Part shown: positions 28,244-57,829 of the stretch, piece after piece
Numbering within the stretch: the first letter of the stretch is position 1
Layout of the letters: each line of letters starts with the position of its first letter
Assembly: GCF_003334405.1 (NCBI RefSeq)
Contig: NZ_QOWM01000009.1
Length of the DNA: 64,000 bases
Reading direction: 5' to 3' (one strand)
Source of the DNA: Escherichia coli
GTDB taxonomy: Bacteria > Pseudomonadota > Gammaproteobacteria > Enterobacterales > Enterobacteriaceae
Position numbers and translations under genes: made by a program
The notes under the pieces: generated by a model
Databases searched by the model: none
Told to the model about the DNA's origin: nothing
What the model saw: the letters and a program-made list of their open reading frames with translations, nothing else

Positions 28244-28562
28244 GCTTTCCCCATCTTACTTAGTCTGTCAGGCGTGGTCAGTCGCACCGGACACAATACA
28301 TGATTCTGCGGTTGGCTATCGGCAAGCGTGGAGTTTAACTTGAGCATCATTAAGCACATCACAGTAACCGCTGATCATAGCAAACCCTCTGAAGGCGGAA
28401 TATCAGCAAATTCCTGGAGTTATTTCAACCTATTGACTTTTAATTTGATTTGAGGACGATTATTTATTAAGTTACATAAATGTAAATAACATGCAATTCA
28501 CATTGCCGAAAGCGTGTCCGATATCGCACAATAACCGCTGATTTCACAGCATAGATCCCACG

Positions 28563-50754: not shown

Positions 50755-51540
50755 CTACCAGGCACCGTGGTACTGAATGGTTTTCGCCGCGCACGCCGTT
50801 CCCTGCGCTATCGCCTGCGGTAATGTCATCCCCGCAGACCAGCCGCAAAGGAATCCGGCAATGAACGAATCTCCGGCACCCATGGTGTCGATAACCGTCA
50901 CCGGTTCAGGAGCCTGACGCCAGAACTGCGCGCCATCCCAGGCAATGCTGCCGTTTTCACCCAGCGTGACAATCACTGTTCCTGCGCCACGGGCAACAAT
51001 CGCTTTCATCTTCAGACGCAGCGTTTCGTCTTCTTGCGGTGCGGAGGCAAAGGCAAAATCGAGATGCGGCACCAGTGTCTGCCAGAGCGGGCTGTCCCAC
51101 TTGTCGGAGAAGTCGAAAGCGGTAAGTTTGCCCGCAGCGTGCAGCTGTGGGAATGCGTCTTCCGCATGTCCCCAGATTGCCGCGTGCACAATGTCATACT
51201 GCGCCAGCCAGGCGTAATCCTCTTCACTCAGGGCAAAGTCGGCCATCACGCCTTCGGTGTAGTCGCCAAAAACGCGATCATTGTCGTGCAGTTCCACCTG
51301 AGTTTGTGCGGTAACGCCGTGTTTCGTATGGACATGGCTGATATCGACGCCCATGCGGGCGAGATCCTGCTTCAGCTTTGTGCCGTAGTCATCGTCACCC
51401 ACCCAGGTAATGCATCCCGGCTGTATGCCGTAGCGAGTGCAGTACACCGCCACATTGACCGCATTACCGCCAGAAAACGCTTTATTCAGTTGCGGGTAGA
51501 TATCGACGCAGTTATCGCCGATTGTCGCCAGGGTTTTCAT
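50755..51540 (-). CDS. frlD: Fructoselysine 6-kinase (PfkB family)
   Basis: 261-aa ORF with ribokinase/PfkB C-terminal signature (DTMGAGDSF). Confidence 0.92.
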
Positions 51541-52367
51541 CTCTCATCCTCCGGCAGCAGCGCGCGAAAGCGTTCCAGCGCCTGGCGGGCATAGAGTCTG
51601 GGCTCGTTCATATACATCGTCACCAGCTCCACCGTACAGTAACCCTCATAGCCCCGCTCAATAATATCGCGCATCAGTTCCCGCAGCGGCATTTTGCCTT
51701 CTCCAGGAATGTAATGCGTGTCGCTGGCCCCGTCGCTGTCGACAATATGCAGATGACGTAATTTATCGCCCAGTTTGTCGAAATAACTCATCACCGGTTC
51801 CGCCTGGACATACGGCGCGCAAATGTCGACCATGCTGAACAGGCGCGGCGAAGGCACCAGCGCCAGCGCATGAAGCACATCATTAGCATTACACACGACG
51901 TTCGATTCATACGGCGTTAACGGTTCGAGGATTAGATCCATGCCGATGTTTTCCGCGTACTCACACAGTTCGCTTAGGTTCTCTGCCAGCCGTCCCCAGA
52001 TAACATTAGGTGGCGTGAGATAGCCCGCGTGGGCCGCGGAAATCAGCGTATAACCCGCGTTCATCTCTTTTGCCATATCCATCGCCAGCTTGATCATGTC
52101 GAGGCTTTCGCGACGCATATGTTCATCGCCCAGCATCATGTTATACGGATAGCCGTTGGTTTCTGGCGTATAGCCGATAATCGGCATCTGATACGTCTGC
52201 GCCAGCGCCTTGATTTGTTTGATGCCGCCCGCTTTTAAGTCCGGCGCGAACGCGTGCGGGCGACCGCCCCAAATTTCGATGCCGTCGTAACCCAGCTCGC
52301 TTGCATCACGAAATGCGTGTTCAATAGGCAGCCGCTGGTGGCCGCAGGTAAACATACCTGTTTTCAT
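51537..52367 (-). CDS. frlC: Fructoselysine 3-epimerase (xylose-isomerase-like TIM barrel)
   Basis: 276-aa product [33 protein letters not shown]...; stop overlaps the frlD start by 4 nt; start 29 codons inside the track ORF. Confidence 0.9.
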
Positions 52368-52416
52368 CGGGTAACTCCTTGCGTAAATCCGGCCCGTTGC
52401 CGGGCCGGGAGAGGGA

Positions 52417-53439
52417 TTAATATTCCACCAGACCACCGTAATAGCGGCGTTCATCCGGGTTGTGATCTTTGTAAATAGACAAGTAGTAGCAGAGCCACTC
52501 CATTGGCACGAACATCAGGAACGGTGCCAGCCACGGGTGCAGCCCTTGCGAAATTTCGGCGTAATCGATGACGATCACGTTGTCAGTACGCTGTTTAACA
52601 AAGTTAATGGCGCGTTCGGTGGTGTGGCGACTTTCATCATTGCCGAGCAGGAACAGGAACGGAACGCCCGGTTCGACAATCTCCAGCGGGCCATGGCGGA
52701 ACTCTCCGCTCTCAATCACGCAGCCGTGCGTCCAGGTAAATTCCATCAGCGTTACAATGCCTTCTTTGTAACCCAGCGGACGCAGCGGACCCGCAGCAAC
52801 GGTATAAATCATCGGCCACTGGCTGGCCAGTTCACCAAGCTGGCGGCCTTTTTCTTCCCAGGTGCGTACCAGATGACCGAGCGCATTCGGCAACTGCTTG
52901 AGATCGTTTTTGATCTTGCCGATTTCCGCGTTCGGCGCGAGGCGGGTGATCATCTCCAGCACCACGCTGTAGCAGAGCAGCAGGTGAATTTCCCAGATAC
53001 AGTCGGCCTGATAATCAATGCTAAATTCCGCCGCCGAGGTAATCGGGCTATCCGCGCGTTTGGTGAACGCCGCAGTGAGTGCGCCGCAGGCCCGGCCCAG
53101 CTCCAGCGCTTTGATTACCTCTTCGGTTTTACCGTAGTCAGAAACGCCAATTACTGCGCAACGATCGTCGAGGCGATACGGGGTGTTATCGCAGAACTCC
53201 CAGCCGGAAATGGCGTAGACCTGAAGATCGGAAAAGCGATCCGCCAGATGTTTCGCCGTTTGCGCCGCGTTGAGTGGCGATCCGCAGGCAACGAAATAAA
53301 TACGATCAATGTCGCGCTTCACCATCTCTTCCACGATGGCGTGCACCAGCGGAACGTCATGGCTGAGAACTTTTTCCACTTCCTGAACCATATTTTCGGT
53401 GACCAGAAAGTCCACGGTGCTTTTATCAATATCCAACAT
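52417..53439 (-). CDS. frlB: Fructoselysine-6-phosphate deglycase (SIS domains)
   Basis: 340-aa product [19 protein letters not shown]... with SIS-domain signature ([11 protein letters not shown]); start 7 codons inside the track ORF. Confidence 0.9.
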
Positions 53440-53459
53440 TTTATTTTCTCCAGATAACA

Positions 53460-54848
<1,389 letters not shown>

Positions 54849-55014
54849 TTAAAAGGTAACATGACAATGCATGATGAATATAACAACATATGATGTTATG
54901 TAATGTGGAGGAAGATCACAAAATTTCGCACAGGATCGCGCTGTGGCTAATGGATGTAGTTATCAAATTGAATTTAAAGTGAAAATATTTTTACGGGCGG
55001 GGGCAAGAAGGACA

Positions 55015-55050
55015 TAGAAACAAATACGCCCTCGGAAAATCCAGAGGGCG
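55015..55050 (-). terminator. Putative terminator downstream of yhfL
   Basis: Stem CGCCCTC ... GAGGGCG (55027-55050); on the reverse strand followed by TATTTGTTTC. Confidence 0.35.
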
Positions 55051-55091
55051 TCGGGCAATTAAACCGGTGTTAGCCGATTTCTGTCAGAGAC

Positions 55092-55259
55092 TTACTGTGC
55101 AGTAGGACCGCAACCGCCAATGATTTTAGAAATAGAAATTGCCGGGTGCAGCAGGTAGTCGTAAGAGCAGTTCTTATCACGGTTTTCAATATGACCAGTA
55201 CATGCAGTTAACGTAGCCAGTACTGCACCTACCAGTGCAACTTTAATAAATTTGTTCAT
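55092..55259 (-). CDS. yhfL: Small putative lipoprotein YhfL (55 aa)
   Basis: Manual reverse-strand translation: MNKFIKVALVGAVLATLTACTGHIENRDKNCSYDYLLHPAISISKIIGGCGPTAQ, with lipobox-like LTAC. Below the ORF-track size cutoff; AT-rich upstream region. Confidence 0.8.
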   Translation of the reverse strand: MNKFIKVALVGAVLATLTACTGHIENRDKNCSYDYLLHPAISISKIIGGCGPTAQ

Positions 55260-55473
55260 TTACATTCCCTATGTATTATATATTAATTAATATTCATTGA
55301 TTATATGAATATAAGCAGACTGCTCGTTAAGAACGATACAGGAATATTTAATTGGCGTCAGTGAGCGAATGACTTAATTTTGTAAGTCGCTGTAACGGTG
55401 AATATAACCCATTAGCAGATAATATTTATTAAGGGGCTATGTTTTATTTGCTGAATATATAAAAAGAGTCATT

Positions 55474-55497
55474 AAGAAGGCCAGAATTCTCTGGCCC
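55474..55497 (-). terminator. Putative hairpin terminator downstream of cysG
   Basis: Stem GGCCAGA-ATTC-TCTGGCC just 3' of the cysG stop; on the reverse strand followed by TTCTTAATG (weak U-tract). Confidence 0.35.
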
Positions 55498-55505
55498 GGG
55501 TTAAA

Positions 55506-56879
55506 TTAATGGTTGGAGAACCAGTTCAGTTTATCGCGCAGGCCAACAACCCGACCAATAATAATTAGCGATGGACTGTTCATTTGCTGCGCCAGTTCTC
55601 CCAGCTGTGTGAGCGTACCGTCAATCACGCGCTGCGTGACTGCCGTACCGTTTTCGACAATTGCCACCGGCATTTCGCCTGGCATTCCGTGTTCAATCAG
55701 CTTTTGCTGAATAGTCGCGGCCTGATTCAACCCCATATAGAACACCAGCGTCTGTTTTTCTGCCGCCAGGTTTTCCCAGTCCAGCTCGCCACCGGTTTTT
55801 AAGTGTCCGGTAATTAAGCGTACGCTCTGGGCATAATCGCGATGCGTGAGTGGAATACCCGAATAGGCAGAGCAACCAGAAGCTGCGGTAATACCCGGAA
55901 CCACCGAGAACGGAATACCCGCGTTGCACAGTGTTTCCAGCTCTTCGCCACCACGGCCAAAAATAAACGGATCGCCACCTTTCAGCCGCACCACGCGTTT
56001 GCCTTTTTGCGCTTCCCGCAGCAGGATCTGGTTAATCTCTTCCTGGGGTACGCAGTGGTATCCCGCGCGTTTGCCGACGAAAACACGGTCCGCATCGCGG
56101 CGTACCAGATTCATAATATCGTCAGAAACCAGACGGTCGTAGACCACCACATCTGCCTGCTGAATTTGTTGCAGTCCTTTCAGTGTCAGCAGCCCGGCAT
56201 CGCCCGGACCTGCACCAACCAGCACCACTTCACCGCGATGGTCGAGCGGTTCGTTGATTAACTGTTCGGTCGTTTCAGTAATGGCTTTCTGATCGTTGTT
56301 TGCCAGCGACTGCGCCAGGCGGTCGTTAACGAACAATTTCTCCCAGAAACGGCGACGCTCACCCATCGTGGCGAACTGTTGTTTCACTCGCCCGCGTAAT
56401 TGCCCGGCGTATTTCGCTACCTGGCCCAGATGTAACGGCAGCAGTGATTCAAGTTTTTCGCGCAACAGGCGTGCCAGAACCGGAGAGGTGCCGCCAGAGG
56501 AGACCGCTACCATGAGCGGTGAGCGGTCAATAATCGACGGCATAATAAAGCTGGCGGCTTTCGGCGCATCGACCACGTTACAGAAGATGCGACGAGCTTC
56601 AGCGGCTTCGCTGACGCGCTGGTTAAGCGCGTCATCATCCGTCGCTGCAATCGCCAGCCAGCAGGTGTCGAGAAGGCTTTCATCAAATGGCCCTTCGACG
56701 AGGGTTAACATGCCTGCATCTGCCCATGCGGTGAACTGTGGAATAAACGCTAATGCATTCACCGTTAAGCGAGCGCCTGCGTCTAACAGCAACCTTGCTT
56801 TGCGTTCCGCGACATCACCACCGCCGACAATCAGACAGTCGCGATCGCGTAATTGGCAAAATATAGGCAAATGATCCAC
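55506..56879 (-). CDS. cysG: Siroheme synthase (multifunctional)
   Basis: 457-aa ORF: N-terminal NAD-binding glycine-rich segment ([12 protein letters not shown]) and C-terminal uroporphyrinogen-III methyltransferase signatures ([27 protein letters not shown]). Confidence 0.96.
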
Positions 56880-56897: not shown

Positions 56898-57704
56898 TTA
56901 ACCGGCAGCCGTTTCAGTTTGATTAAATTTGTCCGCAACCGGACGATTCGCTTTCGGCGTAGCATACCAATAACCCAATCCCATGAATACGGCACCTGAT
57001 AAAGTATTACCCAGCGTCACCCACAGCAGGTTATGACCAATACCCGCCAGCGTGTAGGCTTCGCTGTGGTTGCCGAACCAGGAGAGCGCGAACAGCGTCA
57101 TGTTAGCGATAGAGTGCTCGTAGCCGGACGCGATAAATGCCAGCAGACACCACCAGATAGCGATAAATTTCGCCGCCCCTTCAGTGCGCAGCGCCATCCA
57201 GATTGCCAGGCAAACCAGCCAGTTACACAATGCACCTTTGAAGAAGAGTACCATTGCCGGTGCAGTGGTTTTAGCCAGCGCGACGGAGTGAACGATGCTG
57301 GTATCTACCGGCAGCAGGCTACCGCCGCCCCAGCTATAGAGCATGGCAACGAAGACGGAACCGACCAGGTTACCCAGCCAGGTTTGCGGCAGGATTGCCC
57401 ACATTTGCCCGTGGCTGATGCTGCCCGCTTTTACCCCAAAGGTGAGGAACATGGTGTGTCCGGTGAACAGTTCAGAACCGGCGATAATCACCAGCGTTAA
57501 GGCGATACCAAAGGTCGCGCCCATCACCAAAGGGCGTACGGATGGATCGAGCAAATTACCGAGCGTGAAAATCAGGATGATCCCAAGACCCACATACGCG
57601 CCCGCCATGGCGGAGCTGACCCAAAAGCCGAGCGGGTTATTTGCCGACAGGCGTGCAATGCGCGCAGCGTTAGCCGCACACTTATTAATAGTGTCTGTAA
57701 ACAT
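56898..57704 (-). CDS. nirC: Nitrite transporter NirC (formate/nitrite transporter family)
   Basis: 268-aa hydrophobic ORF directly upstream of cysG on the same strand. Confidence 0.95.
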   Translation of the reverse strand: MFTDTINKCAANAARIARLSANNPLGFWVSSAMAGAYVGLGIILIFTLGNLLDPSVRPLVMGATFGIALTLVIIAGSELFTGHTMFLTFGVKAGSISHGQMWAILPQTWLGNLVGSVFVAMLYSWGGGSLLPVDTSIVHSVALAKTTAPAMVLFFKGALCNWLVCLAIWMALRTEGAAKFIAIWWCLLAFIASGYEHSIANMTLFALSWFGNHSEAYTLAGIGHNLLWVTLGNTLSGAVFMGLGYWYATPKANRPVADKFNQTETAAG

Positions 57705-57829
57705 TTGATTATCCTTTAAAAAATAAAAACAAAAAATAAAACAAAAAGTTTAAAAAATGTCCTGCAATATACCGAAGATTATTACAGGACCATGCAAAAA
57801 GGGGAGGCATTGCGCCTCCCGTTAAAACA

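Follow-up and report, generated by a model that had tools for sequence, protein, structure and literature searches.

The minus-strand feature located between frlA and cysG is the known gene yhfL, which very probably forms a transcription unit on its own, and the most likely identity of the AT-rich tract that precedes it is the core promoter of this gene together with its A/U-rich leader. Positions refer to the window, the whole 64-kb stretch of Escherichia coli DNA that was analysed, and the features of the unit are listed in Table 1. The ORF (55092-55259) begins with ATG, has no upstream in-frame start and, according to the ORF listing, encodes the product MNKFIKVALVGAVLATLTACTGHIENRDKNCSYDYLLHPAISISKIIGGCGPTAQ. 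It is flanked by cysG (55506-56879) and frlA (ending at 54848/54797), both also on the minus strand. The longest frlA ORF starts at 54848 and codes for 462 aa; the RefSeq product of this gene comprises 445 aa, with the start located 51 nt further in.

In the MG1655 genome (NC_000913.3) yhfL is b3369, annotated as "DUF4223 domain-containing lipoprotein YhfL", and the RefSeq product of the ORF in the window is "YhfL family protein" (WP_001031834.1). The Pfam family PF13978 (DUF4223) matches residues 1-54 over model positions 1-54 of 54, with a score of 129.1 bits and E=5.4e-38. A 657-bp query comprising the spacer and yhfL is 100% identical to E. coli laboratory strains and found a match in every complete E. 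coli genome (5426/5426). The ORF listing, the RefSeq and NC_000913.3 annotation and the full-length Pfam match confirm the 55-codon gene which an earlier note on this DNA had placed between frlA and cysG. The same note had remarked that the ORF track lacks this gene, which is explained by its length, because a product of only 55 aa falls below the default cutoff of 60 aa. Such a cutoff loses real, strongly conserved small genes, of which yhfL is an example. The reference annotation already records the gene, the family to which it belongs and the prediction that its product is a lipoprotein, and the promoter region is present in published genome-wide binding lists, so that yhfL carries little weight for discovery; it represents a well-defined and very conserved small protein, predicted to reside in the envelope.

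Table 1. Features of the yhfL unit and its borders (positions in the window)
Feature	Position	Strand	Details
yhfL CDS	55092..55259	-	55 codons plus stop; mature part of 36 residues, Cys20-Gln55, including Cys31 and Cys50
Signal peptide, codons 1-19	55203..55259	-	Lys3, Lys6, hydrophobic core, Leu17-Thr18-Ala19 of the lipobox; predicted from regex patterns
Cys20 codon TGT	55200..55202	-	predicted lipid-modified first mature residue; alignment and patterns
Shine-Dalgarno AGGGA	55266..55270	-	6 nt before ATG
Predicted 5' leader	55260..55293	-	about 34 nt, A/U-rich, unstructured; length inferred from the predicted -10
Second TATAAT	55275..55280	-	perfect hexamer; start would be near 55268
Candidate -10 TATAAT	55300..55305	-	6/6; predicted start near 55293; invariant in six E. 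coli strains
Candidate -35 TTAACG	55325..55330	-	4/6 vs TTGACA; located in the sequence
Inverted repeat ATATTCAT-N7-ATGAATAT	55290..55312	-	perfect, brackets the -10; ATA-N9-TAT at 55290-55304; possible operator, not statistically significant
cysG terminator hairpin GGCCAGA-GAAU-UCUGGCC	55479..55496	-	10 nt past the cysG stop; -13.7 kcal/mol, z = -2.8 vs shuffles; upstream boundary of the yhfL unit
yhfL intrinsic terminator	55016..55050	-	hairpin CGCCCUC...GAGGGCG (55027-55050), then UAUUUGUUUCU; -18.1 kcal/mol, z = -4.07

On the coding strand the tract has the layout TTAACG-agcagtctgcttatattca-TATAAT-caatgaatattaattaatataatacat-AGGGA-atgtaa-ATG. RNA polymerase would start transcription from a perfect -10 hexamer, combined with a weak -35 and a long spacer of 19 bp, and the transcript would end at the hairpin terminator beyond the coding region. 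The AT-rich tract would then consist of the promoter spacer, the -10 region and the short leader carrying the Shine-Dalgarno sequence, and its composition would be what an easily melting promoter and an open ribosome-binding site require. The leader has a predicted minimum free energy of -1.8 kcal/mol (z = +0.66) and folds no better than its shuffles. A 19-bp spacer is poor for σ70, for which 16-18 bp was taken as the criterion, and the consensus promoter scan of the region upstream of yhfL gave no hit on the yhfL strand. Several weaker candidates are present besides the second TATAAT, which is unlikely to be a productive promoter since its start would fall inside the Shine-Dalgarno sequence. 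The same arrangement, TTAACG-19-TATAAT, was predicted as the yhfL promoter in a genomic SELEX study, where the cysG>yhfL spacer is listed among the sites of the RpoD holoenzyme in vitro (PMC3946193, Table 3), and a SELEX peak of the RpoS holoenzyme at 3497370 in the cysG-yhfL spacer (PMC5493296) maps to about position 55359 of the window. Resemblances to the Fur box and the RcsB box, compared by eye only, are both too weak to count as findings. A scan of 54700-55700 against Rfam, with E up to 1, found no RNA family.

The yhfL terminator combines a G+C-rich hairpin with a U-rich run, and none of 200 shuffled sequences folded as well. This hairpin was missed by the terminator scan, probably since its rule allows only loops of 3-8 nt. 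The genes next to yhfL differ between genera, being bigA and trpS in Salmonella, cysG and yhfS in Citrobacter, frlR and trpS in Cronobacter, and unrelated genes in Serratia, Mixta, Erwinia, Xenorhabdus and Edwardsiella. Examination of the gene neighbourhood in these eight other genera revealed no conserved partner gene of yhfL. In all eight the gene is accompanied by its own AT-rich spacer (63-80% over 70 bp), the sequence of which is not conserved between genera, and an AAGG(A/G)-type Shine-Dalgarno motif is found at the same distance from the start codon. Since a terminator hairpin lies on each side, the neighbours differ between genera and the gene keeps its own upstream spacer, yhfL is a self-contained single-gene unit.

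The frlABCDR genes (49900-55090) represent a presence/absence polymorphism beside yhfL in E. coli, the yhfL-frlA spacer being covered in 3296 of the 5426 complete genomes. In strain TUM14771, the one genome without frl that was examined, yhfS directly follows yhfL, as in Citrobacter, and in Cronobacter the frl genes are located on the other side of yhfL. According to a 2026 preprint, the yhfL/frlA spacer is a target of parallel adaptation in the mouse gut.

The 70 bp upstream of yhfL (55261-55330) contain 77.1% A+T, against the original estimate of about 80 percent, and the 46-mer quoted earlier (55270-55315) contains 89%. The contrast with the flanking DNA, also pointed out at that time, is evident in the sliding profile, where the G+C content is 16-24% in the tract versus 39-53% in the flanking 70-bp windows. 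The 70-bp segment richest in A+T in the entire 64 kb is located at 55245-55314 (85.7%), and values of at least 77% are reached by 0.17% of all 70-bp windows, which are confined to three loci. About 1% of the fully intergenic 70-bp windows (mean 59.2%, sd 8.6%) attain the A+T content of the tract, and among 58 annotated genes the upstream 70 bp of yhfL rank second, behind nirC; for both the intergenic set and the gene ranking the window was mapped onto MG1655 and the annotation of this strain was used. The tract is therefore a genuine composition outlier, but not a unique one. The nirD-nirC spacer (57670-57790) is as AT-rich as the yhfL tract. No 46-mer of the window is richer in A+T than the one that starts at 57715 in this spacer (91%), and nirC ranks first of the 58 genes by the A+T content of its upstream 70 bp (80%). 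The third locus with at least 77% A+T over 70 bp, at 28417-28505, is the divergent nudE-igaA spacer.

To account for this composition, the earlier note suggested curved DNA or a promoter bound by a nucleoid protein, and these two ideas fared differently. The region 55260-55330 contains no run of four or more A or T, and its curvature in the Bolshoy/Trifonov wedge model has a maximum of 24.5 degrees (86th percentile, the 95th percentile of the window being 30.8) and a mean equal to that of the window; control sequences validated the calculation, with 63-81 degrees for phased A6 tracts and 3-8 degrees for those that were unphased or random. The predicted curvature is thus average for the window, and the idea of curved DNA can be dropped in favour of a core promoter and an A/U-rich leader. 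The highest wedge-model curvature of the window, 68.7 degrees, is found at about 60868, in the nir promoter region between tsgA and nirB. The TpA steps number 14 of 70 in the tract (20%), versus 4% across the window. TpA-dense DNA is flexible and easily melted, of the kind that H-NS favours, and the tract would for this reason be a natural target of H-NS in vitro; such binding is plausible. The suggestion of a nucleoid-protein-bound promoter agrees with the published in vitro data, namely the RpoD site with an H-NS mark (PMC3946193, Table 3) and the RpoS peak (PMC5493296). The H-NS mark stands on the spacer in the row cysG>HNS>yhfL of the main table; the machine-read supplements of the same paper contain only a yhfL>frlA peak, lack the cysG>yhfL row and place the H-NS mark on yheS>yheT.

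These observations bear on a different view of the tract, according to which it is mainly a silencing platform, where H-NS or another nucleoid protein nucleates, perhaps with the contribution of intrinsic curvature, and keeps yhfL off outside particular conditions. The H-NS mark in the main table, the A+T content of 77-89%, the density of TpA steps and a 99th-percentile peak of predicted curvature at about 55467, upstream of the tract, are all consistent with this role. However, the tract itself is free of long A/T runs and of average curvature, the H-NS mark differs between the main table and the supplements, and yhfL is expressed in ordinary culture (value 120.8). The H-NS 10-mer TCGATAAATT, with up to two mismatches, was also not found within 55260-55340; the scan as a whole gave 73 matches versus 55 expected, none of them in the tract, and is uninformative. 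Silencing as the main function of the tract is possible but unlikely. A repressor of another kind is suggested by a ChIP-seq and RNA-seq study of Nac, in which yhfL is the most strongly Nac-repressed gene, its RNA-seq value falling from 120.8 to 0 on induction (fold change 0.008), and a Nac ChIP region covers 3497026-3497383 with the summit 314 bp upstream of yhfL, inside cysG (PMC5217608). In the window this region reaches position 55346 and the summit lies at about 55573. The inverted repeat bracketing the -10 hexamer could be the operator of a dimeric repressor, for which Nac is the obvious candidate; its occupation would block RNA polymerase and explain the shut-off of yhfL. The repeat is invariant in six E. 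coli strains, and one of only seven ATA-N9-TAT matches in the 64 kb overlaps the -10 hexamer. Nevertheless, the ChIP summit is located away from the repeat, a count of zero reads on a gene of 168 nt is noisy, an 8-bp repeat arm occurs by chance in 6-11% of composition-matched sequences, and the Nac-like motif has a chance occurrence of 24%. Altogether, the assignment of the repeat as a Nac operator is doubtful, and a coupling of the role of YhfL to nitrogen status via Nac is conceivable.

The tract could also be regarded as devoid of a function of its own, being a junction scar or a mutational by-product in a recombination-prone, island-bearing region. The locus is plastic indeed, about 40% of complete E. 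coli genomes having no frlABCDR next to yhfL; independent insertions of IS1 and deletions have taken place in or beside the tract, and the spacer shows 6% divergence and indels in its distal part. On the other hand, conservation within the spacer is highest in the AT-rich core, this core accommodates a Shine-Dalgarno sequence and a perfect -10 hexamer, and the unrelated spacers in the eight other genera are AT-rich as well, all of which makes a mere scar very improbable. The comparison of six E. coli strains, drawn from different identity bands, revealed 13 variable sites in a stretch of 90 nt and only one in the 56 nt that follow it, from just upstream of the -10 to the ATG (Fisher p=0.018); with so few strains, which are moreover related, the difference is indicative only. 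Of the 5426 genomes, 5405 carry the 96-bp core with an identity of 95% or more. The identity of the whole 657-bp query is bimodal, being 99% or more in 2611 genomes and 90-95% in 2212. Together with the layout described above, these data favour the reading of the tract as the core promoter and leader of yhfL.

Within the spacer, the distal cysG-yhfL part (55340-55505), just past the cysG terminator, is unusually diverged in E. coli and carries many SNPs and indels, with the YhfL protein nevertheless identical in the strains examined. At position 55326 the candidate -35 hexamer varies: it reads TTAACG in the window, which is the K-12-type allele and the closer one to the consensus, and TTAATG in the five other E. 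coli strains that were compared. Independent IS1 insertions at the cysG-yhfL spacer (55261-55312 region) are present in NZ_CP023371.1, NZ_CP065615.1 and NZ_CM172715.1. In strain 1283 an IS1B element is located between the Shine-Dalgarno sequence of yhfL and the ATG, with the 9-bp target duplication GGGAATGTA; in FDAARGOS_943 an IS1A joins after ...GCAGTCTGCTTA (about 55312), and the genes from yhfL through yhfU are deleted; in FCI56 an IS1A lies about 60 bp past the cysG stop, with deletion of yhfL through frlC. Elsewhere in the window, a few SNPs distinguish it from MG1655, as well as a 5-bp indel at about 43706, near the yhfX/yhfY spacer.

The product of yhfL has the organisation of a bacterial prolipoprotein. 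The criteria for a lipoprotein were Lys or Arg near the start of the chain, a hydrophobic stretch free of charged residues, and a lipobox [LVI][ASTVI][GAS]C whose Cys falls within residues 15-35. The N-terminus of YhfL contains Lys3 and Lys6, the stretch VALVGAVLA and L17-T18-A19-C20, and it fits the PROSITE PS51257-type and G+LPP-type regexes. The lipobox-like LTAC and the two further cysteines described in the earlier note are present as Cys20, Cys31 and Cys50, and the lipobox check proposed there, performed with these two standard patterns, fits the lipoprotein reading. The sequence TLTAC, including Ala19 of the lipobox, is invariant in 21 of 21 diverse members of the family. K-12 has Thr at position +2, the 21 aligned homologues have either Thr or Ser there, never Asp, and +3 is Gly in all of them. 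According to the +2 rule, Asp at this position is the signal for retention in the inner membrane, and other lipoproteins are transferred to the outer membrane by Lol; since +2 is Thr rather than Asp, sorting of YhfL to the outer membrane is predicted. As judged from these sequence rules, the 55-residue prolipoprotein would be exported by Sec, modified by Lgt with diacylglycerol at Cys20, cleaved after Ala19 by signal peptidase II (LspA) and N-acylated by Lnt, after which the Lol system would carry the mature form to the outer membrane.

A secreted or periplasmic peptide, freed by signal peptidase I and bearing no lipid, would be the rival interpretation of the product. It finds an argument in the older name "conserved secreted peptide", quoted in PMC5493296, and in the searchable literature no lipidation experiment on YhfL was found. 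However, the L-T-A-C sequence is invariant in 21/21 homologues while the rest of the signal peptide varies freely, distant relatives retain a lipobox of the L-[AS]-[AG]-C type, and the current RefSeq name is that of a lipoprotein. A secreted peptide released in this manner is thus highly improbable, and YhfL is regarded here as a predicted lipoprotein.

The mature protein of 36 residues, with a computed mass of 3.9 kDa and pI of about 6.9, is nearly invariant from Escherichia to Xenorhabdus and Edwardsiella. In the alignment of 21 sequences the invariant positions are T16-L17-T18, C20, G22, N26, C31, Y33-D34-Y35, H38-P39, S42, S44-K45 and I47-G48-G49-C50-G51, and the variable ones are mostly in the signal peptide. 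The core of the family, C-x-Y-D-Y-L-L-H-P-x-x-S-x-S-K-x-I-G-G-C-G, is present throughout this alignment. A search of 5.8 billion proteins produced 269 clusters of homologues, all with PF13978 and with 69-89% identity to the query; those with a named source all belong to Enterobacterales, including Escherichia, Salmonella, Citrobacter, Cronobacter, Leclercia, Serratia, Erwinia, Mixta, Hafnia, Xenorhabdus, Edwardsiella and others. An exhaustive profile search against 1.84 billion representatives returned only 74 hits, and the family is therefore small. Its distant members that are of full length and look intact (e.g. P0141, P0142, P0150, P0152, P0161, P0179 and P0180) retain the signal peptide, the lipobox and the two cysteines that follow it, spaced roughly as in YhfL. 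A few further hits, of low score, seem to be fragments or decayed sequences.

Because Cys31 and Cys50 are both invariant, it is proposed that mature YhfL probably forms a loop closed by a disulfide between them. The AlphaFold2 model built on the 21-sequence alignment (pLDDT 62, pTM 0.31) is too poor to support a fold or a disulfide. The search of PDB sequences with the family profile, at E values up to 10, found no match, and comparison with NCBIfam, PADLOC and PHROGs revealed only similarity at the level of the signal peptide. Membership in the LptM family (NCBIfam NF047847) was considered and rejected, the score being 12.6 bits versus a cutoff of 27.7 (E=0.11), over residues 1-20, that is, the signal peptide only.

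The extreme conservation of the protein, in the absence of any conserved neighbouring gene, suggests that YhfL may bind a conserved partner in the envelope. A more specific proposal, that it is a small and so far overlooked subunit or regulator of some conserved envelope machine of Enterobacterales, is made by analogy with tiny lipoproteins discovered recently, such as LptM, and should be considered rather unlikely. Searches of the literature found no study of YhfL concerning lipidation, localisation, the protein itself or its function, and nothing relevant for DUF4223 or b3369. In published lists, yhfL expression is correlated with antibiotic resistance, the gene is up-regulated by FeSO4, and it belongs to a multi-stress gene set; yhfL was also a hit in a Salmonella CRISPRi screen, and its deletion was reported to have no phenotype in one assay.

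Among known systems, the tract resembles the AT-rich, H-NS-bound promoters identified by SELEX (PMC3946193) in its high A+T content, its many TpA steps, and the reported H-NS mark together with binding of RNA polymerase holoenzyme. It differs from them in that yhfL is not foreign DNA but a gene conserved in enterobacteria, and in that the tract is not predicted to be curved and does not contain the 10-mer. With respect to the YhfL family (PF13978) and b3369 of K-12, the gene in the window is the same one, with equal length, the same lipobox and three cysteines and no difference, the stretch being identical to that of K-12-like strains. The lipoproteins processed by Sec, Lgt, LspA and Lnt and sorted by Lol (PS51257 class), of which Lpp is the classic example, share with YhfL the charged N-terminus, the hydrophobic core, L-T-A-C with Cys20 and the lack of Asp at +2. 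Compared with the Lol-sorted proteins, YhfL has a mature part of only 36 residues with a probable disulfide loop, and its lipidation and outer-membrane location are predicted. LptM (YifL) is a small lipoprotein chaperone of the LPS translocon. Both it and YhfL are very small enterobacterial lipoproteins, in the case of YhfL by prediction, and LptM can serve as a model for what a tiny lipoprotein can do.
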